IMG/VR virus record: IMGVR_UViG_2740892351_000003
Coordinates: 1-64,000 of that record
DNA length: 64,000 nt
Origin: an uncultured virus (IMG/VR IMGVR_UViG_2740892351_000003)
Lineage: Duplodnaviria; Heunggongvirae; Uroviricota; Caudoviricetes
Reading direction: 5' to 3' (one strand)
Shown here: positions 18,828-60,245 of the stretch, piece by piece
Position numbering within the stretch: the first letter of the stretch is position 1
Layout: every line of letters begins with the position of its first letter
Position numbers and translations under genes: made by a program
The notes under the pieces: model-generated
Told to the model about the DNA's origin: nothing
Databases searched by the model: none
What the model saw: only the letters and a program-made list of their open reading frames with translations

Positions 18828-18944
18828 ATTCCTATGATAAGGATGTAAAACCTTCTATGTGCTTTATATCCTTATTATTTACTATTGATACTATTCATAT
18901 ATAAAATATAATAAGTAATAGTTAATCCTATTAAAATTCACATT

Positions 18945-19787
18945 TTATTGTGATTTTGATTTTCTAAAACCCTTATTTTCCTTATGTTCACAACCTCTTC
19001 CATAATGAGAACATAGAGTTTTACAAAAAAACTGATTACTTTTGTCATCATTTTTGCACCAAACACTCTCATCGTTGAAATCTAGCTGTTTTATTTGAGC
19101 AACTGTATCAACAATAAAATCAATTAATTGTCTCTCTAGTTCTTTAGTATATTTAATTTTTACTATAGCTCTTTCATAATCATTTATACTATCAATCTTA
19201 TTTCTTTCAATTAATACTCCTTTTTCATTATTCATATATTTACACATATCAAAAGCTACATATTCAATTATTTTATCTGGATATTTTTCTTTAAGATACA
19301 TTGCATATAAGATAAGCTGCATTGATTTTTTAGGTAGGTCTTTTTTAGAAAATTTACTGCTCGATTTGTAATCTATAACATAAATTTTATTACCTATTAT
19401 ATAATATAAGTCTATATATCCCCTCATTGTAATTCCATTAATGTCAAACTCAAAGTATTCTTCTATGTAGTATTTATCACACTCAATTGGTACAAAATTT
19501 TCTATATAATGTAAGATACATTCTAAATAATTAATTCTTGAATTTGGTGTAGGAAAGTTGTAATCCATTAGATTTGCATATTCTATAACTTCATTGTATT
19601 TTTGAATAGCTTCTTGATTTGTTATTTTTCTTTGTTGTAATTGTTCTAGTAAACTATGTAATTCATTGCCATAATAACCATAACAATTTTGTTCTCGATT
19701 TAAATTTTTTACATATGTAAGATAGTACTGAAATGGACATGTGTTAAATGCATTTAATTTACTAAAGCTATATAGTTCTTTTTCCAT
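18945..19787 (-). CDS. Cas4/AddB-like PD-(D/E)XK exonuclease
   Basis: SFSKL..CP, GYIDL, IDYKS, QL.LY and C-terminal Cys cluster. Confidence 0.85.
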   Translation of the reverse strand: MEKELYSFSKLNAFNTCPFQYYLTYVKNLNREQNCYGYYGNELHSLLEQLQQRKITNQEAIQKYNEVIEYANLMDYNFPTPNSRINYLECILHYIENFVPIECDKYYIEEYFEFDINGITMRGYIDLYYIIGNKIYVIDYKSSSKFSKKDLPKKSMQLILYAMYLKEKYPDKIIEYVAFDMCKYMNNEKGVLIERNKIDSINDYERAIVKIKYTKELERQLIDFIVDTVAQIKQLDFNDESVWCKNDDKSNQFFCKTLCSHYGRGCEHKENKGFRKSKSQ

Positions 19788-19861
19788 TAACTCTCCCCTT
19801 TCAAAAAAATAGAGAGCTATTAATTAATAGCTCTCAACCCTCAGTTCCTTAAAAATATATA

Positions 19862-20577
19862 TTAAATAATATTCTCCAGGATGCTATTAACTCCTCTAAA
19901 ACGCTTATTAAATTCTATTTCTGTGTAATAAGATGTTTTTCCTGATGTGTCTTTTACAGCAAATATTTTACCATATTCAGATATGCTTATTTCGTTTAAC
20001 ATGTACTGATTATCTAAAGTTAGTGGCATGTCATTTAATTCTACCTTACTTATATAATCTCTTAATTCCAATTAATTCACCTCACTTTGTTTCTTCTTCA
20101 CAATAATTCCTTAAACTATTTATAAAGTTTTCTGTAACATCAAACCCAGCTAACATCATTGAGAAAAATAGTCCTATAGAGGTTATAATATCCAGTATAT
20201 ATTCTTCTATGCAAGATGTACTAGAATAAAATCCAATCTCCGTATTCCTTCCAAAATATAAACTATATATTAAATTGAAAATTAGAAAAAATATAAATAA
20301 ATATAATGCTCTATATTTACTATTAATTGTTTTTTTCATTTTCATCACTCACCTTTTTTATATCTATTAATTCCCAAGAATAAATCATTCTTTCAGAAGT
20401 TTTATATTTCTTACTTGTATCTAATTTAATAAATAATTCTTTTGCTTCTTTAATTTTACCTTTACAATTATGTTCTATTACATCTTCATCTGATTTGTAT
20501 TTTATTTCTACCAAATCACCTGTATATAAAATCAAACCATTTTTTAATAGTATTTCTTGTCTGACTTCCTGTATCAT
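19862..20577 (-). other. Three small hypothetical ORFs (19862-20071, 20082-20348 membrane, 20323-20577)
   Basis: Tightly packed, co-oriented, with RBSs. Confidence 0.55.
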
Positions 20578-21101
20578 ACAATCATCCTTTCTTCTTTTTC
20601 TAATAATATAGATATTAAAGATTTCGATATAACATCAGCTAAATCAAGTATAAGTTCAGGGTCTGAAGTATCATATATATCATATTTATTTCTACCTATA
20701 ATCCCAACTATTGAATAATCACCAACTTCTAGTAACTTCTTATCTACCCCCAAACCTGGTTTAACAGGTTTATTGCTAATTATAATTGTTCCTTTATCTG
20801 AAATTTTACTTATACAAGCATCAATGGCTATTATATTTGAATTTGGATAATTATTTTTTATTGCTTGTATTTTTTGTTCTAAATTTAAAGCATGTATTGA
20901 ATCTCCTAATACTCCAAATATTTTATTTCTAATAGTAGATTTTTCTAGTATACTGCCAATCATAGGGGCTAATGAGTCAGCTAAAACTCTATCACTACCT
21001 ATACATACTATTAAAGTGTCCTCATTTACAATATCCCTTAATACTTCTGATATTTTTGATATAGCATTTAGATTGTTGTAACTGATTTTTAATATGTCCA
21101 T
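20574..21101 (-). CDS. yyaC: YyaC-like spore protease family protein
   Basis: VCIGSDRVLADSLAP, IHALNL, IIAIDAC, PVKPGLGVDKKL..VGD. Confidence 0.85.
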   Translation of the reverse strand: MDILKISYNNLNAISKISEVLRDIVNEDTLIVCIGSDRVLADSLAPMIGSILEKSTIRNKIFGVLGDSIHALNLEQKIQAIKNNYPNSNIIAIDACISKISDKGTIIISNKPVKPGLGVDKKLLEVGDYSIVGIIGRNKYDIYDTSDPELILDLADVISKSLISILLEKEERMIV

Positions 21102-21111
21102 ATAACACCTC

Positions 21112-21777: not shown

Positions 21778-21797
21778 CTCCTATTAAAACTAACTTT

Positions 21798-22241
21798 TTA
21801 ATCTAAATAGCTAACATCTAAAATACAGTCACCAACTATTTCAAAAGCACATAATATTTGTTTACCATAATCAGATAGCCATGACCCCCAAATACTACTA
21901 CCATGTTCTAACAACCCATATGAATTTAAAGCATTTAATATAAATTCTTGTATCAAATTATTTTTACTACCAATTATTCCACAAACATTATTAAATTCTA
22001 TTTCAAATATGTAACATCTTTCTGTGTATTCTAAGTTACAATTTTTTTCTTTATTTTGTATGGAAGTCAATACTCCTTTTATCATAAAAGATATATCATC
22101 AGGAGAACCACAACCACAAAAATCCATTATTTCATATCTTAGATGTAATATCATTTTACTTGCTATTTTTTTTAATTGATAATTATCATATATATTCATT
22201 TCTTTTAACTTAATCAAATCTATCTTATTTATTTTGTCCAC
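21798..22241 (-). CDS. Hypothetical phage protein
   Basis: CGCG and EHGSS motifs; RBS. Confidence 0.6.
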   Translation of the reverse strand: MDKINKIDLIKLKEMNIYDNYQLKKIASKMILHLRYEIMDFCGCGSPDDISFMIKGVLTSIQNKEKNCNLEYTERCYIFEIEFNNVCGIIGSKNNLIQEFILNALNSYGLLEHGSSIWGSWLSDYGKQILCAFEIVGDCILDVSYLD

Positions 22242-23133: not shown

Positions 23134-24479
23134 TTATTGTTTAGAAGCTATTTTAATTTTATATCCTAATTCATCTTCTATTTCTTCTTTAGTCATTGAT
23201 TTAAGCTTATCTTCTGACCTAATATATAAATTAGTGAAATTAATCAATTGATTTACTCTTCTTCCCCAATCTATTATTTCTCCAAATTCTATTATTACAT
23301 CTTTCATGAAATTATCATCCAAATCACTAAAATTGAAATCTTTATTATGTAAAAAACATATTGAATCACAAGATGCTATCTTATCTTTAAATTCTTGAAA
23401 ATTTTTACAATTTATTTCTGCAATATTATCTTTAGATAAATCATCTTTTAAAAACTTCAATTGAATAAATTCATTTTCTAGCTCATCTTCAGTTGGCACA
23501 CGAATGAAACAATACCCTATTGTAGTCCCACCTCTCATTTTATAAAATTGACTTATATATTCTCCAGTACCTACTGTATAAAATTCTCCTTTTTTATAAC
23601 ATTCAATATCTTTTATACAATATATCGTATCTCCACCATGTATATCTTTTATTAATAAATTCAACATAAATTTTACCTCCAATTCATATTAAAACACATA
23701 TTTTATTTTATAAATTCTTCCCATAAATAAGAATTATTAGAATCAATATTATATTCTGGGTCTATTTTATCTGCTTTAATATTTTCAACTAACCATTTAA
23801 TACCTTCTTCTTCCGAAAAAAATACTATTTTCTCCCCATCTTCATCATATTTAAATCTTTCTGAAGAATACTCATAATAATCATCTGGATATATTGTAAG
23901 TAATTTTACTTTATTTTTATAGCTTATAAAAGGGTAATATGTAGGCATAGTCTCTCTCCTTTATCTTTTTTTATATTTTTTCCACGCTTTAAATCTAATT
24001 TCAGATTTAAAATTTATAATATCATATTCTAATATTTTTCTTCTTCTCTGCTGCTCTTTAAGAAATTTAGTAATAAATTCTTCTTTGGTCATAACAATCA
24101 TCCTCTAAATATATTTTTTTATTTCTAATAAATAATTAAGTATAATTTTTTCTGGAAATGTCTTTGCTGTTATTATATCTATTGATTGTATAATTATAAA
24201 AACAGCAGAAAAGATTATAATCAGTAAACCAATAGTTGCATATACAGAGATATCATCTTCATCATCTTTCCAATCTATATAAATTAATAAAGCACCAACA
24301 ATTATTCCAATTACACATATAATTATCCAAAATATACTTATATCTACCTCATAATTAATATATTTAGTAGTTAATGTTTGCAGATATGGAATTACATTCT
24401 TGTTAGACCAATCAATAGTCATTCCAAATTTATCACTTAGATTATCTAAAATTTTTATAATTTGTTCACTAAACTCCAT
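23134..24479 (-). other. Hypothetical ORFs 23134-23682, 23703-23948, 24105-24479 (2-TM)
   Basis: ORF track, RBSs. Confidence 0.55.
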
Positions 24480-26838: not shown

Positions 26839-27978
26839 CTATTGTTTTTGCTGCTGAATTGCAAATTGCTCTAAATATATATCTTTTAAGGTTCTTCTTG
26901 TACTTGTATTATTAATAATACTTAATCCAGAACTTGTTTCTCTCATAACTCTGCTCCAAATAGAACTGCCTTTATCCATATTTATATACTTAATACATTG
27001 CATCTTCTTTTTCCAATTTGAGTGTCTCCATAAATATAAATTATGCGCAAGACCTAGATATGCATAAAACATGAAATTCTCACAAGTTAATGAGATTTCT
27101 TTAGACATTTTTCTTCCTTCATAAGACATCATCTCAGGATAAATTTTAACTAATTCTTCAAAAAACTCTTTTAAAAATTTAAAACATTCTTCTTCCATAT
27201 TTTTGTCTTCGATATCACTAAAAGTATTTTTAAATGCTGTTACAAGTGTATTTAAAGTAACAATATTCATCATATCATTTTTTGCAATAGATGTTTTAAC
27301 CATATCTATTTTATTCTTTAATGCCCCTTTTTCATTTAATTTTATCATAATACGATTTACTGCATCTTGTTTATTAAAAGATTCAATTCTCGACTTAGAA
27401 AGAGTTTCGTGCAAGTTTAATTGCCAGAAATGTTCCATTGCAACTTCCATGTTATGACAAGTTATTAGAACAGGAAATTTAAGAGTTTTTAATATTTTTA
27501 TTATTCTCTTTTCATCTTCTCCTCCTATTATTTTGGCATCCTGATATATATTATGTATTGCTTTTGTTCTATGTTGACCATCTTGCATACACATTAAACC
27601 TAGTATTATTGTTAGTTGCGAAGTATATTCATCATATATTACTTTTCCTTCTTTCCCATTTTCATCAAGTATATTTATTGTTAGTTGGTCTGGAAAATAT
27701 TTTTCTTGTAATATCTTTTTTTGAATACTTTTGACTCTTGTTTTATTAAAAACTGCTTTATATTTAAATGTTCCATCTGCTTGTTTTTTTGCTAATAGAC
27801 CACGCTGTGTTGCAGGATAGTATATTATTTTTTGTTCATCCCATAATTTTGCTATTTCATATGCAGAAATATTTATAGTCCACATTTTTTTATATAAGTG
27901 GTCTACTCCTTGAAATGTGTAGTTCTCAGTAAGTTTATGTTCATTAGGATTATATATATTATCAAATGTTATCGCCAA
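26839..27978 (-). CDS. DGQHR/DndB (ParB-like) DNA-binding protein
   Basis: TQRG and QDGQHR signature; no other dnd genes in window. Confidence 0.8.
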   Translation of the reverse strand: MAITFDNIYNPNEHKLTENYTFQGVDHLYKKMWTINISAYEIAKLWDEQKIIYYPATQRGLLAKKQADGTFKYKAVFNKTRVKSIQKKILQEKYFPDQLTINILDENGKEGKVIYDEYTSQLTIILGLMCMQDGQHRTKAIHNIYQDAKIIGGEDEKRIIKILKTLKFPVLITCHNMEVAMEHFWQLNLHETLSKSRIESFNKQDAVNRIMIKLNEKGALKNKIDMVKTSIAKNDMMNIVTLNTLVTAFKNTFSDIEDKNMEEECFKFLKEFFEELVKIYPEMMSYEGRKMSKEISLTCENFMFYAYLGLAHNLYLWRHSNWKKKMQCIKYINMDKGSSIWSRVMRETSSGLSIINNTSTRRTLKDIYLEQFAIQQQKQ

Positions 27979-28148
27979 TTAAATCTCTCCTTATTTTGTA
28001 TTTTATTATATTATTATTATATACCATTTTCAACTGAATAAAAATAGACTTTAAACAATTTATCTGTTTTTTATTTAGTTTATAATTTACTCTAACATCC
28101 TTATTTTATACATAATCCTAAGTTTTAAATCTTATTAAAATAGTGATT

Positions 28149-28451
28149 TTAATTACTTTTTTTCTTCTTAGATTCTTCCTCTGTCTTTTTCTTATTTTTT
28201 AAATTTTTTGCTTCCTCTTCTATTAATTCAATCATAGTATCAATAAAGGTTTTTACAAATATTTTTTTATAATTTTTAAATTCTTTATCAGTCAAATCTA
28301 ACTCTTGTTCATCTACGATATTTTGGAATCTATCATTCGCAAATTTTTCTAAATATTTTTTTGAATATGTTATAGTAAAACATGCTTTGAATGATTTAGC
28401 ATATTCTTTAGTCCAATCTTTTAAATTATTTAATTCTATTCTTAATCCCAT
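28149..28451 (-). CDS. Hypothetical protein
   Basis: ORF track, RBS. Confidence 0.55.
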   Translation of the reverse strand: MGLRIELNNLKDWTKEYAKSFKACFTITYSKKYLEKFANDRFQNIVDEQELDLTDKEFKNYKKIFVKTFIDTMIELIEEEAKNLKNKKKTEEESKKKKSN

Positions 28452-36864: not shown

Positions 36865-37440
36865 CTATATTCTTCCAGAACGCTTAGGTTGGGTACTTTG
36901 AATATTTTGAGATGTATTTTTTTTATTAGGAGGTTCAACTTGAGAATTGCCATCATCATCCTCGCAAAATGATAATTGAAGTAAGCCACCTAGTGCATAA
37001 CGCTTACTATATGTTTCTGTTGCTCCATATCCTTGAATATCTAATTTACTCGGTTTTATAGGTACACTATCGGACTCCATAAACTGACCACTAGAATGCC
37101 ATAATACAGTTTTAATTGATACTGAATTGTTTCCACCAGAAATGGGAAATTGAGTTATACATAAATCAAATTTTGCTAATATTGGTCTTATTGTTATTAG
37201 AATATCATCTAAATTTGCATATTTGCTATTATAAAATGGATTATTAGAACTCTTTTCAATACTTTCTACCTCTTTTTGAAAATCAACTAAACTTACTAAT
37301 AAATCTTTTATATTTTCACTTCTGCGAAATGGTATTAATGAATCTTTATTCTCATTTTCTTTTAAATCTCCAACCATTTTTCTTATTACATCTTTTAATT
37401 GTTTTACTTCACTCTCTATGTTAGCTATTTGTTCTTCCAT
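36865..37440 (-). CDS. erf: ERF-family single-strand annealing protein
   Basis: NPFYNSKYANLDDI, GATETYSKRYAL, EDDDGN. Confidence 0.9.
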   Translation of the reverse strand: MEEQIANIESEVKQLKDVIRKMVGDLKENENKDSLIPFRRSENIKDLLVSLVDFQKEVESIEKSSNNPFYNSKYANLDDILITIRPILAKFDLCITQFPISGGNNSVSIKTVLWHSSGQFMESDSVPIKPSKLDIQGYGATETYSKRYALGGLLQLSFCEDDDGNSQVEPPNKKNTSQNIQSTQPKRSGRI

Positions 37441-39888: not shown

Positions 39889-39919
39889 TCATATTAAAAT
39901 GATAATTTTAAATACTTAT

Positions 39920-41716: not shown

Positions 41717-42614
41717 TCATTTTAGATTTTTTTTAGAATTTATATATTTTTCTTTTAAACCTTTATTACCTCTTATTTCTATGATTTTATTTATAGATTT
41801 TATATAGTTTATATCATTAGAAATTCTTTTAAGACTTGTTATAAAGTATACAGAATAGCTTCTTGGTATCTTCTTTTTGATAGCTAAATCAATTACTGTT
41901 CTAGCAGCATTGTAACTTTTTAAATGAGTATGCCCTTCTTCAAATTTTTTATTTGTATTATAAACAATATATCCAGTTTTAGATTTGATAATAATATATT
42001 CTTTTTTCTCATATATTTTATTTGTATCCATTACAAATCCTCAATTTTATGCCATATCATTTCTAACTTTCCATGTTTTCTATTTAGCCTTCTTCTAATT
42101 TCATATGCAGATTTAATTTCTTCTTTTACATTTTGCCACTTATCTAAAACTTCTTCATATTCTTTATTCTCTTCTTTTAAAAATAGTATTTCTTCATTCA
42201 ATTCACTAATTTTGATATTTAACTCTCTGTTCTTTTCTAATAAATTATAATATTTTTGTTCATCTATAAGTATTGAAATCACTACCTTTCACAAACTTCG
42301 TATACGCCATTTTAAGCAATAAAGGTATAAACACAAGCAGTCATTTTTACAAAACCTTAGAATGTCATATACGAGACCATGTTTTTTAATTTAAAACTGA
42401 CATTTTATAGTTTATATTTTCCATCATCCCTTGGATATAGAAATTTTATATCTTTAAGGTCTAAACCATTTCTCTCGTAATAATTCTTTGCTCTTATACA
42501 TTCTCCTGGCGACACTCCATATAATTTAATTAAATCTCTAAAATTTATAAAATGTTTTTGGCCATCATTTTTTGATGTAATCTCCCATTCAAATACAACG
42601 TATTTAACTTTCAC
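41717..42614 (-). other. Hypothetical ORFs 41717-42031, 42031-42282, 42405-42614
   Basis: ORF track, co-oriented. Confidence 0.5.
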
Positions 42615-43228: not shown

Positions 43229-43746
43229 CTCTCCTTTTTTTATTTGTCTTTACTTTTTAGTTTATTCCATCTAGTTATCATTTCTTCATCTACAAACATG
43301 ACTGCATCTGGGTGTTTTACCAACAAATCATTAAGCTCATCATCAGATATATCTTTTGATATTTCAATAAAATTTAATTTACCTATCACACATTAACCTC
43401 CTTAAAATAATACTTTTAATCTAAGTCATTATTCAATAATAATAATGCTATAAGACAAAATCCATTAAGTAGTATCCTATTAGTATTATCTTGCAAGTAA
43501 TTAGCTACCATACAACCTAAATTAAAAATTGCAGCAATATTTAAAATCAAATTAATACTCCTTTCTTTTATTCTTTTTTGTCAATATATATACTACTTGA
43601 TGGTATAAGAATCCAGATTAGCAACCATGCTAAGGTATTGATTGGATATGTTGTATCTAAGAATTGAAATTGTGGGAAGTTTAAAATATCTACTACCCAA
43701 ATTATTATAAGAATTGTTTTTAAGACTTTAAACATTTAACTCTCCT

Positions 43747-44130: not shown

Positions 44131-46854
44131 TTAATCATTTACAACATTATATTTATCATCTTCTCTCCATCCAAAATTATATGGTTTTATAATGTTACAT
44201 ATTATATCTTTGCATAAACACATATAGTCTTCAATACTATCTTCAGAGTCACTATCTTGTACATTTATTAATGTATCACAGCCACTACAGCTTCCATAAC
44301 CAACATATGTCATAAGATATTCATATTCATTAGGTTGGTATGTTTTTTTAGGTATTAAATATAATAAAGTACCTTGATAATCTCCATTATCTATTTCACT
44401 TATATTGTCGACATCCCACTCATCATCTTCATTTATATTGTCATTCAAAATATGTTTTACAGATAATTTAACCAAATCTTCATAGCTACAGTAACTATCA
44501 CGATTAATGAAATCAGACTCTAACAATGCTTCATGTAATCTTGTTTTATTTTTTATCCACTTTTCTTTACAATATTTTATCATTTAGCTCTCCTTTAAAT
44601 ATTATTTAGATTTTCTATTTGAATTGTTCCAGTAGCACAATCTATATGTTGCCCAAGAATGGATGTTAAGCAACAATCTATATCATCTACCACTATTTTT
44701 ATATGAGGGTCTATTTTTAAAGATATTCCATTTATGGCTTTTGTATCATATATTTTACTTCCATTAAACATGTATTCTTTAAATGTTTTTGGGTTTATTA
44801 TATCTAAATTCATTGTTTTTGCTAAACTAATTATGTAATTTTTATTAGCAATAGAATGACATAATATAAGTGCATTATTTTCATAAGCATACTTTATTAA
44901 TGCAGTAGTTTTCCCACTACTTCTGTTTCCATTTATTAATTTCATAATTATTTTTCTCCTATTAAAATATTTATTTTATTTTATTTTAATTTTTTCTTTT
45001 AAATTTTCAAGTATTCCATCAAAACAATTATCATGTTCACTACAAATATTATATACACAATATGGACAACGATTGTCTAAATTTTCATCAATATATCGTG
45101 CATATCTTTCTAATATTTCTGTAGTATAATCTTTATCTTCCAATCTTAAGTAGTTTATGAATTCTTCCATTATGTATTCTTCATTAATGTACTTACTATA
45201 TACTCTATCTTTTTCTTTTTGAATGTTTTTAAAAAGCCTATAATCTTCAGTATCTATTTCTCCATTTTTTATTTTTCCCATCTTATAATTCTCTTTCAAA
45301 TTTTCTAATTACATCAATTCTTTTCTGTAACTTTTCATTATTAAATTCGTCATCCTCCATCATATACTCTAAATTATCAAGTAAGTAATTCACTGCTGTT
45401 ATATAGTTTTTAATTCCTTTATTCATTTTAAATATCTCCTTTTAATAATTTTCTAGTAAAAATCTTTCTATCATAGAAACAATATCATGTATTTCTTTAT
45501 AATCTGCATTTATTAACTTGTAATCAAATAACTTCTCAACAACTATTTTTTTTACCTTCATATCTATAAGGTCTATCATATATTTCTAACTCTATTTGTT
45601 TATTTTCTTCTATGTAATATATGGAAAAACAAACATTTCCCCATATATTAAATACTATTCCACTTACTGCTCTCATCACTGGTTCTTCAATTTTAGACCA
45701 AAGATTCATATTTATCCCCTATTAAAAGTATCATTTTATTTAATTATTATTTGCATTATCCATGACTTCTTGTACAGACTTTTCCATATCATAATCATAT
45801 ACATCACCATTTTTATATCTAACATCTACTATATGCTCAGGAATACAATTAAAATCTTTTATATCTTTAGAAACTTGTTTACCACAATATGGACAATAGT
45901 TTATATGTACTGATTCTGAACATGGAGCAATTATTATTTTTCTAATTTTTTTGTAGTAGTCGACATTAACATATGTATTTCCCCTGATTTTATATCCGTT
46001 TAGTTTGAAATATTCATAACATCCATCATAACAATTATTACAATTATCTTCTGCTATAATTTCACATGTATTGTCTTCTAATAATCTACTTCTTGAGGTT
46101 AAAAGTATATCTTTTGTATTATCAATTATACTTTCACAAAACTTACACATATTCAATTTACCTTTCTTATAAAAATAAAATTTTATGTTATATTAATCTA
46201 GTATTAATTTAAATCTATCATTTTGAATAAATCGTGTTTGTTTATCGAATTGTTTCATTAATTCTTCAATTGATCTAAAGCCAGAACTACAATCACCAGT
46301 ATCTAAGTTCACATATCCAAAATAATTTAATATTGATATTATTAAATACTTGTTATTACCTGCAAGTATAATGTCTCCAACTCTAACCTCTCTAAAAGAT
46401 TTAATCATGTTATCTTCAAATTTCATATGTACCTCCATTTAAAATTAAGATTTTATTGTATTTCATTATAATAAATTAATTCTGGATTACGACATTCTTC
46501 ATATCGACTATATCCTAAAAATTCATCGTCTTCACAATGTATTTGTATATATGGTTTTATCCAATTTAAAAATTTATTTATTTCATCATCATAATTTTTT
46601 AAGTTACTTCTAATAGTTAAATAATATGTTTTTGCTATATCGTCATACTCAAACATCGTATTGCTCCTACCTGAGAAAGAATAACTATCCATTATAAATA
46701 ACCATCTCCATCTACGACATTCAAAGAATGGGTGAGGTGGTGTAATATCATATCTATCTTCTCCTTCTATCATGTTATTTAATATATTAATAACTTCTTT
46801 TGGCGTATCCTTTTTTAATTCAATCGCACATACAAATTCTGTATACATTCCCAT
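44131..46854 (-). other. Run of small accessory ORFs (44131-44583, 44595-44945 with Walker A GNRSSGKT, 44976-45299, 45740-46156, 46193-46438, 46453-46854)
   Basis: Each has its own RBS; most junctions carry TAAAA-N6-TTTTA. Confidence 0.6.
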
Positions 46855-46893
46855 TAGTATTTCCTCCTAAATTCATCTATTAAATTTTTCATT

Positions 46894-48147
46894 TTAATTA
46901 CTTTTAAAATTATAAACTGGTTTTAACACCTCCATTATCTCAATAGTATCTCCTATATTGTTTAATATGTCCTCTATAGGTTTGTATGCTTGTGGTGCTT
47001 CATCTAGTGTTGATTGACCTACACAAGTTGTAAATATTTCTTTCATAGATTCTTCAAATTCATCTAAAGATATTTTTTCTTTAGCTTTTCCTCTTGATAA
47101 AATTCTTCCTGCTCCATGTGGTGCTGAATAATTCCACTCAGAATTACCTTTACCTTTTCCTAATATAATCCCATCTCTCATGTTTACTGGAATTATTACT
47201 GTTTCATCTTTATTTGCAGAAATTGCTCCTTTTCTAAGTATTTTACTATCCATATCTATATAGTTATGAATACATTCTATAACATCACATTTAATATCTC
47301 TTATAAAATGGTCATAATTTACATCTAGGCTGTTATATTTAAACAATATATCCGCAATTATAACCATTCTATTTGCAGCAGCGTATTTTTGAGCTATACT
47401 CATATCATGTAAATAATCTTCCATTAAATCATTTTCTAAATAACATAAATCATCATGTGGCTTATTCAATTTTCTATCACTAAGGTCTTTCAAATATTTA
47501 TTTATCAAATGTTCTTTATTGTCTTTTTTTAGAGTAGATATTAAAAACTCTTTTGCATCATCATATGACTTTTTATATTTTTCAATACAATATTTTATAG
47601 CTTTGTCTTGGTAATAATCAGCTATTTGTTTTCCTAAATTTCTTGAACCTGTATGAACAGTAAGATACATTTGACCTTTTTCACTTTTATCAACTTCTAT
47701 AAAGTGATTGCCTCCACCTAAAGTTCCTAACGACATATATGCTCTATTTTTATTCACCTCGCATCTAAGATTATTTATGTCTATATTAAATAAATTCTTT
47801 AATAGTTTTTCTCTTGACTTATTATGTATTTTAAATCCATGAGGAATATAATCTCTTATAATCTTATCTAATTTTGTATAATTTATATTATTAATATATT
47901 TTTCTAATGGAATAGTAGCCATTCCACAACCTATATCCACCCCTACCAGATTTGGCACTACTTTATTACTTATAGTCATTGTCGTTCCTATTGTACATCC
48001 TTTACCAGCATGACAATCAGGCATAATTCTTATACTAGATTCTTTAAATTCCTTTTGATTACATAAATTTATTATTTGACTTATTGTTGTACTATCTACA
48101 TTATCTGTAAATATTTTTGCTTTGTTATATTTCCCTTGAACTTCCAT
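46894..48147 (-). CDS. rtcB: RtcB RNA ligase
   Basis: MPDCH, GVDIGCG, GGGNHF, HTGSR, HNY, RKGA, HGAGR, DEAP.AYK. Confidence 0.95.
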   Translation of the reverse strand: MEVQGKYNKAKIFTDNVDSTTISQIINLCNQKEFKESSIRIMPDCHAGKGCTIGTTMTISNKVVPNLVGVDIGCGMATIPLEKYINNINYTKLDKIIRDYIPHGFKIHNKSREKLLKNLFNIDINNLRCEVNKNRAYMSLGTLGGGNHFIEVDKSEKGQMYLTVHTGSRNLGKQIADYYQDKAIKYCIEKYKKSYDDAKEFLISTLKKDNKEHLINKYLKDLSDRKLNKPHDDLCYLENDLMEDYLHDMSIAQKYAAANRMVIIADILFKYNSLDVNYDHFIRDIKCDVIECIHNYIDMDSKILRKGAISANKDETVIIPVNMRDGIILGKGKGNSEWNYSAPHGAGRILSRGKAKEKISLDEFEESMKEIFTTCVGQSTLDEAPQAYKPIEDILNNIGDTIEIMEVLKPVYNFKSN

Positions 48148-48190
48148 TTATTATTCTCCTTTTAAAACCTGTATTTTAACTTGTTATTTA

Positions 48191-49079
48191 TTATCCCTCT
48201 ATTAAATCCTGTACGTCTACAGTCACCGAACCTTTTCTTTCGAGTTTTATAAATTTTTCCATTAGTATTTCAGGAAGTCTATTCTCCCCATACTCTTCTT
48301 TTATTTTATCTTTTATTAAATTTATAATATATTCCTCCATTTCTTTATCTGTCATATTAAGATATTTATCCAGGTCATAAATGACGAGTTGTTCTATATC
48401 TCTTCGATAATGGCATAGTATATCTTTTAAAAATATTTTTTTAATTATCTTAATTCTTTTTTCATAAATCAATAATTCTAAATTAAAATATGTTCTTTTT
48501 TCTTTGATTCTTATTTCATATTCAAAAATTCTTTCTAATGGTTTTATTGATTCGTTATTTTTTATATATTTTGACTTTATTAATTTCTTAAAAGAGTTAA
48601 TTATATTTGCTCATCTCCTTCCATTTTAAGTTTTATATTCCATACATATTAAAACTAAATTCTACCCCTTCATCATCCTCAAATTCTTCATTGAAGACTT
48701 CTTCTACTGTTTTATCCTTAGAGATAACTATATGTAAATAACCTCGTTTACTAATAAAAGAAGTTTGATAAAGATTATCTAAACCCAAGAAATCCCCTTC
48801 TTGTTTATAAGGTACATATATATCCTCCACACTTCCGTTTTCGTATTCTATCTTTACATTTGTAATATCCTTATAATCATGCAATCTTTGAATTTCATCA
48901 ACACGTTTATGTATTTGTATATGTAAATAATCTGCCTTCTTGCATTTACCTATATAACTCAAAGCAAATCCTCCAATAATTTCATGTATATTATCTAAAT
49001 AAAAACCTCCTACATCTCCAATACCCAACTCTACATTCTCTAAGTTATCTAATCCTAAAATTATTTTCTTTATTTTCAT
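48191..49079 (-). other. Hypothetical ORFs 48191-48472, 48633-49079
   Basis: ORF track. Confidence 0.5.
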
Positions 49080-49657: not shown

Positions 49658-49692
49658 TATTATAAACCTCCAAATAAATTAAAATTATTATC

Positions 49693-50510
49693 TTAATACC
49701 AATACATAATAATTAAACTATGTTTTTCAAAATCAATTATGTTTAACATTTTTTGAAATTCTTTTAATACTAAATCCCAAAACTCCTGTGTATACCTATC
49801 ATCAACTGTTACTTTTTTATCATTTTTATAATAATACTCTTTATCCTTATTGTATATCTTAGAATTTATATCTTTTTGTTTAAGAAAAGGAATTATATAA
49901 TCTTCCAAATCTTCCTTTGTAATAAGTATGGCTTCATCTTCATAACTTTCATAACCTTTTTCCCATTTGGCTTTATATATCATACGAATAACTGACCAAT
50001 CTTCTAAAGATATATCAATATCTAATAATTCTTCAAACTTATAAAACTCTTCTTCATCATTATTCAATTCCTTATATTTCTCACCTCTTGTTTTATTTAA
50101 ATAAATATCTAAATCTGTAACTTTTGTTTTTACTGAATAAAAACCTAAATCTAATCCCATATGTATCACCTCGCTAATTAAAACTGTTTTAATTAGATTC
50201 TAAATTCACTTTTTCTTTTATGATGTTTAATAAAGGTTTATAATTATCAATACCTATTGCTCTCATTACTCCATTATCTACATGTTTAATATATTTCATT
50301 AAATACCTCACTTATTATTTTTAATTCATCACAATCATGCTCATTTTCTAATTTATTTTTTATAAATTCTGCTACCTCCTCTTCTTTTAACTTTTCTATA
50401 TCTTCTTGATGATTTAAGATAACCTTCATAATAGATGACAAAGACATCCCATAATCATACATCGACTCATCTCTTATAATATCCTTCTTTTTATTCTTAT
50501 ATATTACCAT
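49693..50510 (-). other. Hypothetical ORFs 49693-50169, 50286-50510
   Basis: ORF track. Confidence 0.5.
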
Positions 50511-50521
50511 TCATTGTTATT

Positions 50522-50710
50522 CTGAAACTCCTACGCCTAAAGGCGTGGGGTTCTTAGGTACTACATGAATTTCTACAATACTCTCAGTTATAATAAATCA
50601 TAACCTACAACATATTATCACTAATCATATTCCCTAAGACTTTTATTAACAAAGTATCTGTTGACACCATTAACATTAATATTAGGCTCGTTTCTCAACC
50701 TATATAGTTT
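50522..50710 (-). ncRNA. Predicted TnpB omegaRNA (reRNA) scaffold; 5' end uncertain
   Basis: Non-coding right end between tnpB stop and terminal hairpin. Confidence 0.6.
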
Positions 50711-52159
50711 TTATATCCCCATACTAGATATTAATTTATAACCATTTAATTTTAATTTTTTTAATCTATTTATCTCTTTATCATGTAATATTTTAAAGTT
50801 ATCATATGTTTTAACACACAATTCTCTGTTGATTGATTTTAAATCTTCATTAACATTCATTATTAAAAATGCAGAATAGCAATCTCTTTGAATGTCCATA
50901 CCATTATTCCATCTATCTTTTAATTCCTTCTTATTGTACTCATCTGAAAAGTGATTATATTGACTGGCTCTACATTTAGCAGTATCTATCTTATATAATC
51001 TTTCATTATTATATTTTAACTTATTGTCTAACATAGTCAAAAACATTGATGGTGCTTTATTTGCTAATGATTTTCCAAAACGTTTCTTTTTATTAATTCT
51101 ACCAGTTTTTTCATTAATAGTAGTATCCTTGACTCTAGTTTGAAGTCTTTTATAACTCATCGTTTCAACATAAAACTTATTGCCTAAATTTAGTAATTTG
51201 TTAATTAATATATAGTGGTCTTGTTTTCTTATTTCAGCTTGTTTTCTATATAACTCTTTTCTTAGTCTTTTTAATTTAAGATAGTGATTACTAAATATCC
51301 ACTTATCTCTATTTCCTTGTTTTATAGTACCATTATCATTGAATTTATTAAGATTAGTTGCACGTTTACTTCTATCCATTTTACGTTGAATTAACTTTAT
51401 TTGCCTATCTATATTATTAACATTAGGAGCTAACTCCAATAACTTAACATCACATTTACTAGATATAGCTATAGTTTGAGTTCCAATATCTATACCTACA
51501 TTACCTAAACCAATTTGTCCTTTTATTTTTCCTTGATTGGTTGTTTTTTTAGGTGGAATTCCTTCTAAGACTAATTGTACATACCATTTAATTTTACCCT
51601 TAATTTCTTTTTTAAGTATTCTACAATATTTTATTTTATCTTGTATCGCTCTTTGAGCATAATTGTCATTATTCTTTATTATTACTGGAATAGTCATCTT
51701 ATTAAATTTAATAATACCATCTTTATAACTAATACCAGTTGAATTTTGTTTCCCTTCTATTGATGTTAATTCATTATATCTAATATAATTAACTCGTTTA
51801 GCTTGATGATAGATATACTTATTAAAAGCATTAAAACATCTTGTAGCTATCTTCTGAGTTATAGCAGAATGTAGTTTATAATATTTACCAATAAATTTAA
51901 CAAACTTATGAAGTGAATACTCTGTTAAATTATACTTCTTATTAATTTCACTAAATATTTTATTTCTATCTTTACCCTTATATTTACAATTTGCTTGGTG
52001 TTCTTTAGATTCTATCATGTGGTTATATCTTTTAAATAGCTCTGATAAACATGAATTATATACTTTTCTATACTTATCAAAAGCATTACATATAATGTCT
52101 TCTTGAAACTTTTCTGTTTTTAATTGCAATGTTAATATATAATTTGACATAGTGTTCAC
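50711..52159 (-). CDS. tnpB: TnpB RNA-guided nuclease
   Basis: RuvC D (GIDIG), E (YVETM), D (QRDCYSA); CxxC zinc finger absent. Confidence 0.88.
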   Translation of the reverse strand: MNTMSNYILTLQLKTEKFQEDIICNAFDKYRKVYNSCLSELFKRYNHMIESKEHQANCKYKGKDRNKIFSEINKKYNLTEYSLHKFVKFIGKYYKLHSAITQKIATRCFNAFNKYIYHQAKRVNYIRYNELTSIEGKQNSTGISYKDGIIKFNKMTIPVIIKNNDNYAQRAIQDKIKYCRILKKEIKGKIKWYVQLVLEGIPPKKTTNQGKIKGQIGLGNVGIDIGTQTIAISSKCDVKLLELAPNVNNIDRQIKLIQRKMDRSKRATNLNKFNDNGTIKQGNRDKWIFSNHYLKLKRLRKELYRKQAEIRKQDHYILINKLLNLGNKFYVETMSYKRLQTRVKDTTINEKTGRINKKKRFGKSLANKAPSMFLTMLDNKLKYNNERLYKIDTAKCRASQYNHFSDEYNKKELKDRWNNGMDIQRDCYSAFLIMNVNEDLKSINRELCVKTYDNFKILHDKEINRLKKLKLNGYKLISSMGI

Positions 52160-52167
52160 CTCACTTT

Positions 52168-52518
52168 CTAGTATCTTGTTTTCTGGTTTTTCACATATTT
52201 TTTAATAGTTTCACTACATACGTTTCCTGCTGTAGATACAAAATAGCTTCTAGTCCATAAACTAGGCATTTTTGATAATTCAATAAATTCTTCTCTTAAT
52301 ATTTTACTTGTATAGCCTTTTATATTTTGCATTATATCAGAAGGATTTAGAGTCGGAAGACTATTTAAAAACATATGTGTATGGTCTTTATCGCATTCTA
52401 TTGCAACAATTTCGATATCCATTTCCTTACACTTATTTTTAACTAATGTTTTAAATCTATCTTCTAAACCTTCTATATTAAATATTTTTCTTTTATATCT
52501 AGGGCAGAATACAAAGTA
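52168..52518 (-). pseudogene. tnpA: IS200 TnpA Y1 transposase, 5'-truncated
   Basis: HUH (DHTH) and Y (KKYVKNQ) present; homology continues upstream (YFVFCPRYKRKIF) to an in-frame TAA with no start codon or RBS. Confidence 0.75.
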
Positions 52519-52602
52519 TTAACATTATACGTGTATGTGTCAATACTTTTTATACACTGTTTGTGCTATCCATCCCACACCTAAAGGAGTGGGCTTTCCG
52601 CA

Positions 52603-52920
52603 CTATTCTGTAATCCCATTTAAATCTAAACTATTTTTATTTAAACTTTTTATGTAATGTATTATGGGTTTTACTACATCTTCAATATCTGCATTTACCT
52701 TTCTAAGTAAACTATAATCACCACAATCATATTCAACATAAGCTAATTGGTTTGTATCACTATCAGAACCTAATGATAATTCTGTTTTACTAGCTATAGG
52801 TATTAAATCTCTTTTGCAACTAGGACATACTATTACATCTTCATTTAAGAAATAATAGTATTCTTGTAATGTTTCTTCTACATTGAAGTATTTATTACAA
52901 TTCTCACACCAAAACCTCAC
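52603..52920 (-). CDS. Zn-ribbon protein whose 3' end is clipped by the IS
   Basis: CENC..CPSC; stop codon supplied by the IS left end. Confidence 0.6.
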   Translation of the reverse strand: MRFWCENCNKYFNVEETLQEYYYFLNEDVIVCPSCKRDLIPIASKTELSLGSDSDTNQLAYVEYDCGDYSLLRKVNADIEDVVKPIIHYIKSLNKNSLDLNGITE

Positions 52921-56825: not shown

Positions 56826-56879
56826 TAAAAACCTCCTTGTACCTACTAGGTAAAATCACATTAAAACAAATGTTTTAAC

Positions 56880-59461
56880 TTAATCTTCAACCTCATACCA
56901 ATTCCAATCTATAAAATTTTCAAAAACATAATCCCATGCAATTTTATCTATATAACCCTCTCTCTCTTCATCAGACATATCTTTTAAATCATCATCATCT
57001 ATTTCAAACTCCAGCTTACAGTCTGAACCAATTTTATTAGTTTTAACATGTACATTTATTTTCATATTCTAAAATTCTCCTACTTAAGCTAAATTTTATT
57101 CCAAATCAAAATTTTTACACTGCAAAATCTCTTTATTACCTTCTAAGCAAATAGACTTAAATTCAATTTCTTTATCTTTAGAGTTACAATATCCTTCATA
57201 ATTATTTGAACATGCTAAAAGCTCACACTTTACACAATACTCATTGACTTTCATATTAGGATGATAAACAGGAGTTGAACCAGCTACAATTTGTCCACAA
57301 TATTTACACACCCAAATCTTACAAGTATGCTGCTGACTTTTTGTTGTAATCAAATAACAATCTTTTATCCTTGAAAACTTATGTCTGCATATACATCTAA
57401 AACCTTTAATAAACATCACTCCTTTATATACTCATTATTCTTGTCATACTGTTGTCATCATTGAAAATACTAGTTTTAATTAACAACATTTTTTAGTTCT
57501 ATTTCTTCTATATCTCTAACAGCAAACCAATATGGTTTATATTTAAAGTCATCTATCCATTTTTTAAATACTTCGCTTATTCTACTCTCTAGTATCAATA
57601 TGTCTTCAGCACGTATATTTTCAAACCAATCTTCTCCATATTCTCCGTATTCGTCATCAATTCTATTTTGAATACATTCTAAAGCATCTTTTGCATCTAT
57701 GTCGGGAATATCAGCTTCTTCTTTTTTTCCAATATAAACCCATCGTTTAATTTCTCCGAGCCTCTTAAGTTCTTCCTTAGCTGCCTCGACAGCTTCTTCT
57801 TTACTTTCGTATTCATCACTTCTAAAACATTCATCATCCCAACTATATAACCAAACATCTTTCATATAAATTCCTCCTCTACTTATTTTTCTTATATACC
57901 TCTTAAAGTAACTCTATATTTACATCTCTATCTCTAAAAAATAATTCTCTAATTATCTTTTTATTTTTATACTCAACATCTAACATTTCATAACATTTAT
58001 TACATAGTTCTATGCTTACTTTATCCCATCTCTCTTTTAATTCATCTCCACATCTGACACACACCTTATTTTCTTCACAAAGTATAAGAAACTTTTTTTC
58101 CTCTCTATCATTCGCATTTCCAGTTAAAAATACTTCATTTTTATTAAATTCAAATTCTAAATTTTTACCATAAAGACGTCCAATTCCAAAATCACTAAAA
58201 CCATTCAACATTCTATTTGGTGCATCTTCGATACCTAAAATATTGATGCCTCTTCCTCTTACAGCTCTAAAATCCCTATTCTCTGTTAAATCAACATTAC
58301 TTTTCATTTTTAAATACTCTATTTTTTATTTTTTTAAATATATTTAATTTAGGTGGTTCTACACTAGAGTTTTTTGTAGTAGGTAATGACTTTATATTGG
58401 CAAGTTGCTTATATGTATCATTATTTTTTTCTAAAGAATCTAATTCTTTTTTTAACTCATCTAATGATTTAGGTGTAATTATATGTTTTAATATGTCTTG
58501 TCTTCCTTTTTTCTTATAATCATTTATCATTTTCTCTAATGTTAAATCACAATACTCATCTTCCCAATCTCCAAGATAATAGAATCTATCTACAATAGCT
58601 CTGCTTTTCTCATCTGAAAAAACACCAAATAGTATTGGGTCTTTATCTCTTCTCTCTTTGCTTATTTCCTTTGTAATTTTACCTGTATAATCAGTAAACA
58701 AAACATACATTTTATCAAATATATCTTTTGTTTTCTCTATTATTTCTACTATTTCATCTGGTATTTCTCTTTCATAATTTTCAAGTTCTATTATTTTTAC
58801 TGTATTTTTAGATATATCATCAATATATTTTTCTATATCTTCTTTATACACAAATGTATCTATTCCCAGCTCTATTACATTTCTTTCTTTTTCAATACAT
58901 TCAAGTAAAAACATTAATTTCTTAGCACCCTTTTTTTGACCAGTTACAATATATTTGTTTAAAAGAATCAAAGAGTTTTCATATATTATATCAAGCTTTT
59001 CATTTGTATTTTTTTGCTTTCTATTTTTAATATCTTCAAAATAATCTCTAGGTGTTAATTCTATATTCTCCATATTTAATTCCCTCCTAATTTTACAACT
59101 TAACGTTCTCTACAGTACCTAAATCAATAACTTCATATTTTACATAACCGTAGTTATTTTCAACATATTCTTCTATAACTTCATCATCAGTAGGATTATT
59201 AGGTCTATTAATATCTTGGACAATATCAATCTGAATACTGTCATGTTCAGAAAAATATATTATATACCTATTTACTTTTTCATTTGTCCATCTTTCCATT
59301 TCAATCCAAAATTCATCTATATTCATTGATTTCCATTTTTTACTTTCATAAAATTCACATTTTCTATTCTCTTTATACACTTCTTTTTCTTTCTTATTGC
59401 ATATACCACTCTCCTCTATCTTGTTTTTTTCAAAGTAAAAACAATCTTTACACCTGCTCAT
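56880..59461 (-). other. Hypothetical ORFs 56880-57065, 57096-57419, 57476-57865, 57903-58307, 58297-59073, 59093-59461
   Basis: ORF track; RBSs; several Cys-rich. Confidence 0.55.
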
Positions 59462-59510
59462 TTCATTACACCTTCATTCATTTTTTATTTCACTGAATAA
59501 TTTTATTTAA

Positions 59511-60053
59511 CTACTCAAAAATCTCTACATATTTAAATGGTATATACTCACATAACCAAACATTGTTTTCAGATAAGTAAAACTTATAACCATTTTCATA
59601 CATTTTGCCTGTATTAATTTTTAAAATTACAGGCGTACCATGTCTTTTACCAACTTTAACAGCAATATCTATATCCCTTGATAAATGTACATACAGTCTA
59701 CTTTGTTTAATAATACCTTCATTTTTAATATTGTCTAAAAATCTAGTAGCTGTTCCATGATAAAGATATTTTGGTGGTTCTAATTCCCTCAATTCCACAT
59801 TAACATTAATTGAATGTCCTTGATTTGCTCTAATCTTGCTTCTATCATCATTAAAACTGTATCTTTGCTTATTATCTTCTTTAACTATTTGCTCAAGGAT
59901 TTCTATATTAATATTTCTACCAGCATTATTTATTTTTTCAATCAATTCATTAACATCTGCATATCCACACTCATCTAGTTTAATTCCAATAATTTCTGGT
60001 TTATGTCTTAATATTAAACTTATAAAAATAGATAGCTTATCTTTTTTACTCAT
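59511..60053 (-). CDS. kptA: RNA 2'-phosphotransferase Tpt1/KptA
   Basis: LRH, KQRY, IRANQGHS, LYHGT, YVHLS; GAGGTG RBS favours ATG 60053. Confidence 0.93.
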   Translation of the reverse strand: MSKKDKLSIFISLILRHKPEIIGIKLDECGYADVNELIEKINNAGRNINIEILEQIVKEDNKQRYSFNDDRSKIRANQGHSINVNVELRELEPPKYLYHGTATRFLDNIKNEGIIKQSRLYVHLSRDIDIAVKVGKRHGTPVILKINTGKMYENGYKFYLSENNVWLCEYIPFKYVEIFE

Positions 60054-60090
60054 TGACTTCACCTCATCTTCTTTAGCTAATATTTCAGCA

Positions 60091-60207
60091 CTATCTATAC
60101 ATCTCGCCACAACTTTTACATTGATACATAGTACCTAATTGTGTATTAAGTTCATATATATCTCCACCACAGTCACATTTTTTAATTCTTATTGGATTTT
60201 TCTTCAT
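60091..60207 (-). CDS. 38-aa zinc-ribbon protein (not in ORF track)
   Basis: AAGGAG RBS; MKKNPIRIKKCDCGG...YQCKSCGEMYR. Confidence 0.6.
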   Translation of the reverse strand: MKKNPIRIKKCDCGGDIYELNTQLGTMYQCKSCGEMYR

Positions 60208-60245
60208 TTTTAATCACTCCTTTTCTATTAAAATCTTGATTTTAA

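Follow-up and report, generated by a model that had tools for sequence, protein, structure and literature searches.

The DNA considered here is the first 64 kb of a C. difficile phage of the phiCD211/phiCDIF1296T type (IMG/VR record IMGVR_UViG_2740892351_000003, 139,236 bp in total), and this stretch of 64,000 nucleotides is referred to throughout as the window. The minus strand of the phage carries all of the genes from about 9.9 to 78 kb, here called the early block, whose products include proteins of replication, nucleotide metabolism and RNA repair together with many small uncharacterised proteins. Junctions between the accessory genes of this block are punctuated by a 16-bp site, TAAAA-N6-TTTTA, consisting of two inverted 5-bp arms around a 6-bp spacer. 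These sites are joints where related phages have swapped neighbouring modules, a conclusion that follows from the persistence of identical 16-mers while the DNA flanking them has been replaced, with homology ending at their edges. Why phage genomes are mosaic at gene boundaries is an open question, for which illegitimate recombination followed by selection and recombination at conserved linker sequences are the competing answers, and it is addressed here by a 16-bp mark, found at boundaries across a whole phage group, that combines invariant arms with a centre particular to each position. Since the Bacillus phage SPbeta is a genetically tractable model with 34 copies of the site, the question is directly testable in Bacillus subtilis.

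The evidence for exchange comes from a comparison of six phiCD211-like genomes, namely the present phage and five relatives (gene boundaries, here and below, are crude open reading frame (ORF) calls except in SPbeta and phiCD211). Between 39 and 50 kb the succession of sites, as told by their spacers, is unchanged among the relatives, and the genes between these sites differ in number and kind. When identical sites were paired between genomes and their 60-nt flanks compared (leaving aside sites closer than about 140 nt to a record end), both flanks were homologous in 59 of the 145 pairs, one flank in 57 and neither in 29, such that 86/145 were non-homologous on at least one side. Control 16-mers were taken from directly before the start codon at the 489 site-free junctions and gave 192 pairs, in which both flanks were homologous 188 times, one flank 4 times and neither 0 times. 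The edges of replacement are sharp: wherever the left flank was non-homologous, identity ended 0–3 nt before the site (32/32 distinct cases), and among 40 cases with a non-homologous right flank it ended 1–3 nt past the site in 22, 4–11 nt past it, that is, in the ribosome-binding site, in 17, and 23 nt past it in one. The original prediction, made from the letters of the window, had proposed that single genes may be gained, lost or shuffled at these sites, and gain, loss and replacement exactly at them, with site order kept, are what the comparison reveals.

Individual junctions illustrate the point. The site at 42392..42407, a perfect copy fused to the stop codon of ORF 42405-42614, is a hybrid of two sites of phiCD211, with the upstream flank of the first and the spacer of the next, and eight high-scoring segment pair ends from the five relatives fall at 42375-42402. 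Beside the perfect copy at 39895..39910, which lies 9 nt past the stop of ORF 39920-40075 and is directly followed by a ribosome-binding site and start, homology to relatives breaks at 39886-39891. The gene downstream of the perfect copy at 43403..43418 (stop-fused to ORF 43416-43550) varies among relatives; the 16-mer of the perfect copy at 44963..44978 (stop-fused to ORF 44976-45299) stands in unrelated contexts in two relatives; that at 45723..45738, likewise perfect and 1 nt past the stop of ORF 45740-46156, has three unrelated sets of flanks in relatives; and the perfect 16-mer at 46440..46455 (stop-fused to ORF 46453-46854, with the next start 1 nt downstream), taken together with its ribosome-binding site, joins five different flank combinations in relatives. 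Deletions are seen as well. In one relative four genes have been lost and the body of a site runs straight into the downstream flank of a different one; the crossover lies within an arm in two deletion products; and phiCD211 possesses two sites 8 bp apart with nothing between them at a place where a third relative has a small gene. In the SPbeta lineage, SPbeta, a provirus relative and an SPbeta-like contig share 16 pairs of identical sites (13 distinct 16-mers), none with an alignable flank, as against fewer than about 2 expected by chance (as estimated for 2,440 pairs given 4,096 spacers) and 4 identical pairs from 235 control cores. At two of these shared sites the neighbouring proteins had no similarity in 4/4 comparisons.

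The window contains 16 perfect copies of the site, which comprise the 15 listed in the original prediction and an unlisted sixteenth at 48428, as compared with 2.46 ± 1.40 in 100 dinucleotide shuffles (largest value 7), and the spacers of the perfect copies all differ, as had been noted. The whole phage record has 22 copies versus 9 of a reversed control pattern. At the 70 same-strand minus-strand junctions of the window (6,106 nt), 14 sites occupy 14 junctions, where 2,000 shuffles of each intergenic stretch, preserving composition and with stop and start codons held fixed, gave 0.40 on average and never more than 3, so that the earlier claim of a frequency far above chance is borne out. Eight copies (18932, 21785, 23690, 28136, 42392, 43403, 44963 and 46440) are fused to the stop codon, which forms the first three bases of the site, as compared with 0.053 in the junction shuffles; this number had previously been given as 11, and seven more copies lie 1–13 nt past a stop. 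Over the whole early block there are 17 junction copies in 91 junctions, and the late plus-strand block has none in 40. Non-coding DNA makes up 11% of the genome, yet it holds 19 of the 22 sites. As reported before, no site lies between 28151 and 39895, the span of the dnaE-recJ-primase-helicase core.

It might be argued that such a motif is a compositional accident of AT-rich stop codon and ribosome-binding-site contexts, given that the genome has a GC content of 25–28% and the junction DNA of the early block is 77% AT, that the abundance of half-sites by itself predicts about 7.5 copies in the whole phage as opposed to the 22 observed, and that about 3 of those 22 lie inside ORFs. For the junction copies this is refuted by the shuffles just described. 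In addition, the enrichment is specific to a spacer of six (22 copies at N6 versus 3 at N5 and 6 at N7), phages of 35% GC carry 28 copies versus 1 of the control and 34 versus 2, and the arms are under selection (see below), so we give an accident practically no credence. The few intragenic copies may be due to chance, and this may also be true of the perfect copy at 48428..48443, which falls within or at the 5′ edge of the called ORF 48191-48472. One-mismatch copies do exist at junctions where they had been pointed out (46881..46896, between rtcB and ORF 46453; 49680..49695; and 57463..57478), but taken together such copies show no enrichment (54 versus about 47.6 expected). Accordingly, rtcB and ORF 46453, each said to have a site on both sides, have a perfect copy on one side and only a one-mismatch copy on the other.

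The remaining junction copies in the window conform to the same arrangement. Those at 18932..18947, 21785..21800, 23690..23705 and 28136..28151 are perfect and stop-fused, respectively to the minus-strand gene of a PD-(D/E)XK nuclease (18945-19787, whose stop codon supplies the first three bases of the site), to ORF 21798-22241, to ORF 23703-23948 and to ORF 28149-28451; the next start lies 7 nt downstream of the second and of the third, and the fourth is followed by a 170-nt gap with a second repeated motif and a promoter-like stretch. Perfect copies a short distance from the stop are found at 46170..46185 (7 nt past ORF 46193-46438), 48163..48178 (12 nt past ORF 48191-48472 and upstream of rtcB, 46894-48147), 56862..56877 (2 nt past ORF 56880-57065 and upstream of the DNA ligase gene) and 60229..60244 (1 nt past ORF 60246-60668, with a ribosome-binding site and a small ORF after it). 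The sole junction copy in the window that lies outside the early block is at 4635..4650, in the plus-strand gap between tail and lysis genes, 24 nt past the stop of ORF 4473-4610 and 65 nt before a start at 4716.

The distribution of the site follows a phage group. Relative to the control pattern, the five relatives of the present phage carry 26, 26, 23, 21 and 12 copies versus 7, 4, 7, 4 and 4. A scan of viral contigs with an extended pattern matched at least 119 stretches, and among the matches listed are two large proviruses without nucleotide similarity to the present phage that have 28 copies versus 1 and 32 versus 2 (1/28/0 and 0/32/2 at N5/N6/N7), as well as two other contigs with no excess (5 versus 5 and 15 versus 18). 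SPbeta has 34 copies versus 2, with 0–3 at every other spacing from 2 to 11; phage c-st of C. botulinum has 31 versus 7, with 5–10 at neighbouring spacings; a further SPbeta-like contig has 1/24/1 at N5/N6/N7; and in the single high-GC assembly searched, 24 of 25 copies lie on its one SPbeta-like contig. Ordinary C. difficile phages have no excess (phiC2 0 versus 0, phiCD38-2 3 versus 2), and on this ground a host factor was rejected as the explanation: the site marks the SPbeta-like phage lineage and not the host. Four AT-rich assemblies with a RecJ-like locus had no genome-wide excess either (101 versus 101, 92 versus 205, 47 versus 56 and 14 versus 59), which is a weak test of a host factor as these are not known hosts of site-bearing phages; such relatives of the RecJ-like protein numbered none in a first scan of genomes and 10 loci in a second scan that used an alignment.

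In the annotation of SPbeta the site begins in the stop codons of yoqG, yoqS, yorT, mtbP, yorZ, yosC, yosF and yosR, 27 of the 34 copies are in the early half, and two copies are labelled in the record merely as stem-loops. A literature search by the spelling of the motif, which did not extend to the 1999 SPbeta genome paper, returned no description of it, and SPbeta reviews and surveys, the MrpR paper and the phiCD5763 paper mention no such site under the terms searched. Site-bearing genomes have in common the SPbeta-type DnaE polymerase, primase, DnaB-type helicase and terminase, as well as tyrosine-recombinase-family proteins, an MrpR/YopR-like protein and Xre-type regulators. The proteins shared between the Bacillus and the Clostridia phages are 22–41% identical, and the arms are identical.

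Conservation of the arms can be quantified from orthologous copies in the six phiCD211-like genomes, using non-identical pairs with an alignment that covers the site and 10 nt on each side. Changes were found at 26 of 1140 arm positions, as compared with 100/684 in the spacer and 268/2204 and 273/2195 in the 20-nt flanks, so that the arms change about five-fold less than spacer or flanks, a figure in which the choice of one perfect partner per pair lowers the arm value by at most twofold. The SPbeta lineage gave 5/70 for the arms, 10/42 for the spacer and 30/130 and 28/132 for the flanks. Arms that rarely change around a spacer that changes as its flanks do show that strong purifying selection acts on the arms and their 6-bp distance and not on the sequence of the spacer.

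Whether the arms are recognised as sequence or as a fold bears on a second proposal, in which the site acts at the RNA level as a small stop-codon hairpin involved in termination-reinitiation coupling, processing or mRNA stability. Its placement relative to the stop codon is indeed tight (in the phiCD211-like genomes, 35 of 93 sites with an ORF end nearby are stop-fused and a further 18 have one base between), and its downstream side is directional. Read in the direction of transcription, the anatomy in this group is stop codon, 0–13 nt, site, then A, T, A and the ribosome-binding site; in 76 distinct junction contexts from the six genomes, T occupies position 6 in 59, A occupies position 17 (the first past the site) in 69, T occupies position 18 in 52, and positions 21 and 22 are G in 51 and A in 64, after which the ribosome-binding site follows. 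On the sense strand a potential sixth pair is frequently T-G (16) and rarely C-A (1). Set against this, pairing at positions 6 and 11 occurs in 48/76 contexts when about 50 would be expected (a hand calculation from marginal base counts), folding of 14 sites gave only 0 to −4.4 kcal/mol, mostly about −1, with two of the 14 unfolded, and double variants with compensatory changes in the arms show no excess at N6 (23/26/34 at N5/N6/N7 in the present phage, 16/15/11 and 14/12/17 in the two proviruses). Hairpins this marginal, without enrichment of compensatory variants, imply that it is the sequence that is recognised and not the fold. Single-mismatch arm variants are also without excess. Furthermore, the stop-to-site distance is not phased, no Rfam family matches any site (the sole Rfam match in the window is HEARO, at 63274-63477), and in SPbeta some sites come after a terminator and before a promoter: those upstream of aimR and yorE each stand between an annotated terminator stem-loop and the next promoter, which argues for a role at the DNA level. 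An RNA signal, which the original prediction had listed among its alternatives, is therefore quite improbable.

The site is not itself a promoter, a reading rejected because sigma-70-like matches are no more frequent than in shuffles (159 versus 157.9). Just one of the 10 perfect sites between 39 and 58 kb, nine of which are at junctions, overlaps a promoter-like match, namely 44963, the only one there whose left arm serves as a −10 element. Terminator-like matches also show no excess (2 versus 1.8).

The third proposal, and one that must be taken seriously, is that the site is of the operator type, also an alternative in the original prediction: a conserved dimeric regulator would bind the roughly 20–35 sites and block or insulate transcription between early units, either in the prophage or at a fixed stage of infection, in the manner of stoperators or of global plasmid repressors, and recombination would be a by-product, since the 16 bp would be the only homology left between diverged modules and short-homology recombination would end there. 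This remains a live rival, which we regard as possible if doubtful. The palindrome has a one-turn half-site geometry, its arms are selected while the spacer is free, and the sites are limited to early operons (0 in 40 late junctions, 27/34 in the early half of SPbeta) and stand at unit boundaries, including the terminator-site-promoter order in SPbeta and c-st; for the early-operon restriction and the boundary positions an operator accounts equally well. The phages also carry annealing proteins of the Erf or Sak4 type, and the Erf-family single-strand annealing protein of the window (36865..37440, minus strand, Pfam PF04404) could drive short-homology exchange. Conversely, many degenerate copies are normal for operators and the one-mismatch copies here are without excess, and arms that are identical in Bacillus and Clostridia phages whose shared proteins have diverged so far would be unusual for a regulator and its sites. 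As for recombination as a by-product, the 16–25 bp of the shared patch are short for homology-driven exchange, and other identical junction 16-mers almost never mark a boundary (4/192). The PeSLs, short repeated elements of T4-type phages, provide a precedent for recombination between elements that work in expression (PMC2839356). MrpR, the master repressor, has ten peaks in chromatin affinity precipitation sequencing (ChAP-seq) at a different, 15-bp element (PMC10516654), which speaks against it as the binder.

The explanation we prefer, tentatively and at a little short of an even chance, is that TAAAA-N6-TTTTA serves SPbeta-like phages, the present one included, as a joint at the level of DNA between units of their early accessory-gene operons, with exchange targeted to the site. 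It sits directly after a stop codon, often supplying that codon, and is followed by a ribosome-binding site, promoter or terminator; its arms would be read as duplex DNA by a sequence-specific dimeric protein. Exchange between same-spacer copies in co-resident phages or prophages would swap a module and leave gene order unchanged, and rare exchange between copies with different spacers would produce deletions. The actor would be a dedicated protein, either of the recombinase family or a site-specific nuclease, in preference to passive homology. Targeting is favoured by the shortness of the shared patch, by the failure of other identical junction 16-mers to mark boundaries, and by the presence of the same arms in Bacillus and Clostridia phages, as if compatibility between phages had been selected. 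A more specific version, which may be true but in which we place limited confidence, is a dedicated and position-addressed cassette exchange whose protein reads the TAAAA/TTTTA arms and is productive only between sites with the same 6-bp centres. If this were so, phages and prophages sharing a cell in Bacillus or Clostridia could trade accessory genes one slot at a time with gene order intact, and the arms would serve as a common currency across the group, for which reason they would never drift. A dedicated enzyme, should one exist, would be a natural counterpart of engineered cassette exchange and would help to explain the trade in accessory genes among large temperate phages of spore-formers, including those of C. 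difficile; should the site instead be the operator of a regulator, it would represent a previously undescribed global control element of SPbeta-like phages.

Several observations weigh against targeted exchange. The control for the identical-16-mer test is imperfect in that its 16-mers abut a start codon, which places the right flank inside a gene. Homology breaks were also counted by junction, taking gaps of at most 150 nt with homology on at least one side in some relative, and were found at 11 of 12 junctions with a site versus 39 of 62 without (p = 0.089), or, per junction and relative, at 18/36 versus 74/190; the SPbeta pair adds nothing here (3/3 versus 17/23, and 1/2 versus 20/29). The difference between junctions is not significant, and the expectation that breakpoints would map to the site is upheld by the identical-16-mer and edge tests. 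In alignable contexts the spacer drifts like the flanks, which implies that nothing selects a particular spacer. The palindromes beside both recombinase genes of the window differ from the site in having arms of 14–18 nt, and the YopP-like protein, a recombinase relative, has Lys for the second catalytic Arg and is present in only two of the six phiCD211-like genomes. To our knowledge, arms of 5 bp are shorter than any tyrosine-recombinase binding site. Finally, in a preprint on laboratory hybrids of SPbeta and phi3T, 15 of 16 recombination sites were in ordinary homology; the one non-homologous junction is described there as "following yosA" and may be the copy of the site at SPbeta 116415-116430.

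A further possibility is that the palindrome matters to replication or topology, an SPbeta-type replisome or topoisomerase pausing, priming or switching template at it, with copy-choice at identical 16-mers giving rise to mosaic joints. It could be said in favour of this idea that the DnaE polymerase, the primase and the DnaB-type helicase are the only non-structural families, beyond recombinase-family and helix-turn-helix (HTH) proteins, found in all five lineages, although the link to the SPbeta-type replication module comes from one clade and so counts as a single observation. At the site at 56862 the four central bases are in opposite orientation in the present phage and phiCD211 as compared with two other relatives, with the flanks the same; this resembles the inversion of a loop in a small palindrome, and an inverted centre is the expected signature of template switching at a hairpin. 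A replication signal, however, should be genome-wide, and the sites are nearly absent from the late operons and from the replication core. In addition, among the matches listed for one assembly with a RecJ-like locus there was none on contig 9, whose identity as the contig of that locus is unconfirmed. We therefore regard a replicative origin of the joints as unlikely.

How does the site compare with repeated phage elements that are already known? It shares the role of a shuffling joint with PeSLs and its number and placement with stoperators, and it fails the defining features of PeSLs, stoperators, integrons and the SPBRE element alike. PeSLs (promoter-early stem-loops; Arbiol et al. 2010, PMC2839356) are likewise short, repeated and intergenic, run from the upstream stop codon to the next ribosome-binding site, and lie among small non-essential genes where insertions, deletions and replacements between relatives end; location among accessory genes with indels and replacements ending at the element is found for the present site too. 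A PeSL consists of a functional sigma-70 promoter and a stable G/C-rich terminator hairpin, of which the site has neither, and recombination between nearby PeSLs yields small circular DNAs. The site differs as well in having 10 fixed bases out of 16, a spacer particular to each copy, and the same arms across host classes. Stoperators of cluster A mycobacteriophages number more than 20 copies of a short site in short intergenic spaces near gene ends and are read by one phage protein, and the 17 copies in 91 early-block junctions resemble this pattern. They are 13-bp asymmetric sites whose orientation follows transcription and which bind a monomeric immunity repressor (PMC9283540), in contrast to the core of the present site, which is a palindrome and is nearly confined to early operons.

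Within the same phage group, SPBRE is likewise a repeated element of the early region of SPbeta, and it is bound by MrpR, a protein that has the fold of a tyrosine recombinase but no longer its catalytic activity (PMC10516654). It is a different 15-bp sequence at about 10 promoters, and the ChAP-seq peaks of MrpR number ten and not 34 (PMC10516654). Words shared by nine of the ten MrpR-bound upstream regions are unrelated to the site, which occurs nearby in only three of the ten.

The likeness to integrons that the original prediction suggested is real in outline, each unit being an ORF with a palindromic site at its 3′ end, arranged in arrays of small accessory genes in which the cassette at a given position varies between relatives. 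An attC site is an imperfect palindrome of 57–141 nt with paired core sites that takes its fold as single-stranded DNA, and an integron also possesses an IntI gene, attI and a common promoter (Pc). The present site, unlike attC, is 16 bp with 5-bp arms, folds marginally and has flanks that are not conserved between contexts beyond the 16 bp, and, unlike integron cassettes, the genes have ribosome-binding sites of their own and stay in order, and spacers are position-specific. No recombinase gene abuts the site array, and the tyrosine recombinases of the phage are Xer-like or phage-integrase-like by Pfam and best PDB matches, with IntI4 a weak match (E = 5.4e-05) of the YopP-like protein only. 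Membership among integrons fails for want of an attC-type folded site, an attI/Pc platform also appears to be lacking, and what survives of the earlier interpretation is the exchange of genes at the sites.

The geometry of a tyrosine-recombinase core site, to which attention had also been drawn, is borne out by the 5 + 6 + 5 arrangement and the strict N6. Xer/dif and Cre/lox systems use two inverted half-sites around a crossover region of 6–8 bp, and in engineered cassette exchange with lox variants unlike spacers do not recombine productively, a rule that would explain order-preserving exchange between like-numbered sites. Tyrosine-recombinase half-sites are, on the other hand, about 9–13 bp, roughly twice as long as the arms here, and natural systems have one or two sites per replicon as opposed to 20–35. 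Only 5 bp of each arm are fixed, and in SPbeta position −1 is A in 25/34 copies and position +1 is T in 19/34 (hand count).

Two tyrosine recombinases encoded in the window are candidates, and nothing more than candidates, for acting on the site: a Xer-like protein at 6770..7714 (plus strand; Pfam PF00589 and PF02899) and an arm-binding integrase at 12090..13202 (minus strand; Pfam PF00589, PF14659 and PF14657). Alignment shows the catalytic residues of both to be intact; the former retains the first Arg, an H-x-x-R-H motif and, towards the C terminus, the His and the Tyr. Near the Xer-like gene and an HTH gene lies a palindrome at 7870-7916 with 18-nt arms (94% complementary, 11 nt between them), and beside the integrase gene is another, at 13341-13373, with perfect 14-nt arms and a 5-nt centre. 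These are candidate cognate sites or operators, and the palindrome at 13341-13373 is more likely the partner of the integrase.

The MrpR/YopR-like gene, of the recombinase-fold repressor family, has its C-terminal part in the window (63488..64000 on the minus strand, running on to 64381) and was assigned by clustering and by hidden Markov model (HMM) hits to SPbeta yopR and its counterparts (PHROG 10004). Next to it, beyond the window at 64493-65461 and in the same order as in SPbeta, is the YopP-like gene, whose product has, besides the Lys that is also found in SPbeta YopP, an Asn for the late His; with these substitutions it may bind DNA without cutting it. As a binder of the site it was rejected on its occurrence in only two of the six phiCD211-like genomes, and a YopQ/DndB-like protein was rejected because it is found in two of the six and is missing from one of the proviruses. 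The DndB/YopQ-like gene of the window (26839-27978, minus strand) occurs only in the present phage and one of the five relatives, and its SPbeta homologue lies between yopP and yopR. YonO, the late RNA polymerase of SPbeta, was rejected as a common factor, as no phiCD211-like homologue was found by tblastn or with a three-sequence HMM; both unrelated proviruses and c-st do have homologues. A single promoter serves for the transcription of the late operon by YonO (PMC5467207), whereas most of the sites lie in early DNA.

The second repeated motif of the window, AACTAAATAAAAT, was matched 13 times when up to one mismatch was allowed (3.0 expected), always on the minus strand and at positions that include 26714, 28068, 37456, 38351, 55380, 55407, 55478 and 61105. 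The copies seen in a listing of intergenic DNA are in the longer gaps beside promoter-like sequence, and the motif is likely the counterpart of SPBRE as the operator of an MrpR-like repressor. In c-st many of the sites (for example 3485, 29637, 30745, 34304 and 41246) are followed after about 10–15 nt by a repeated motif of the AAATTAAATTAAA type, and in at least two cases (3485 and 29637) a promoter-like −35 element comes after this motif, the order at 29637 being hairpin, site, motif and promoter.

Other features of the early block were recorded along the way. None of the five related phages matches the dnaE-recJ-primase-helicase-erf core (28450-38200) at the nucleotide level, and since the replication genes of the relatives are arranged differently, the whole replication module appears to have been replaced. 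RuvC is encoded in the window as well. An IS200-type Y1 transposase gene at 52168-52422 (minus strand) adjoins a 482-aa ORF without a Pfam match at 50711-52159, and GC-richer structured gaps flank the pair (50510-50711 and 52422-52603); 50711-52422 is probably an insertion of the IS200/IS605 family, and transposases are annotated in phiCD211 at the matching place. A 451-aa protein with RRXRR and HNH domains (IscB-like; 61878-63233, minus strand) has directly upstream of it a full-length match to HEARO RNA (63274-63477, minus strand, 128.5 bits), and the two together have the predicted make-up of a module of the RNA-guided-nuclease type within the early block. Farther along the block, beyond the window at 66377-68743 and 76206-76919, are genes for a 788-aa Cas3-like HD nuclease/helicase and an ArdA antirestriction protein.

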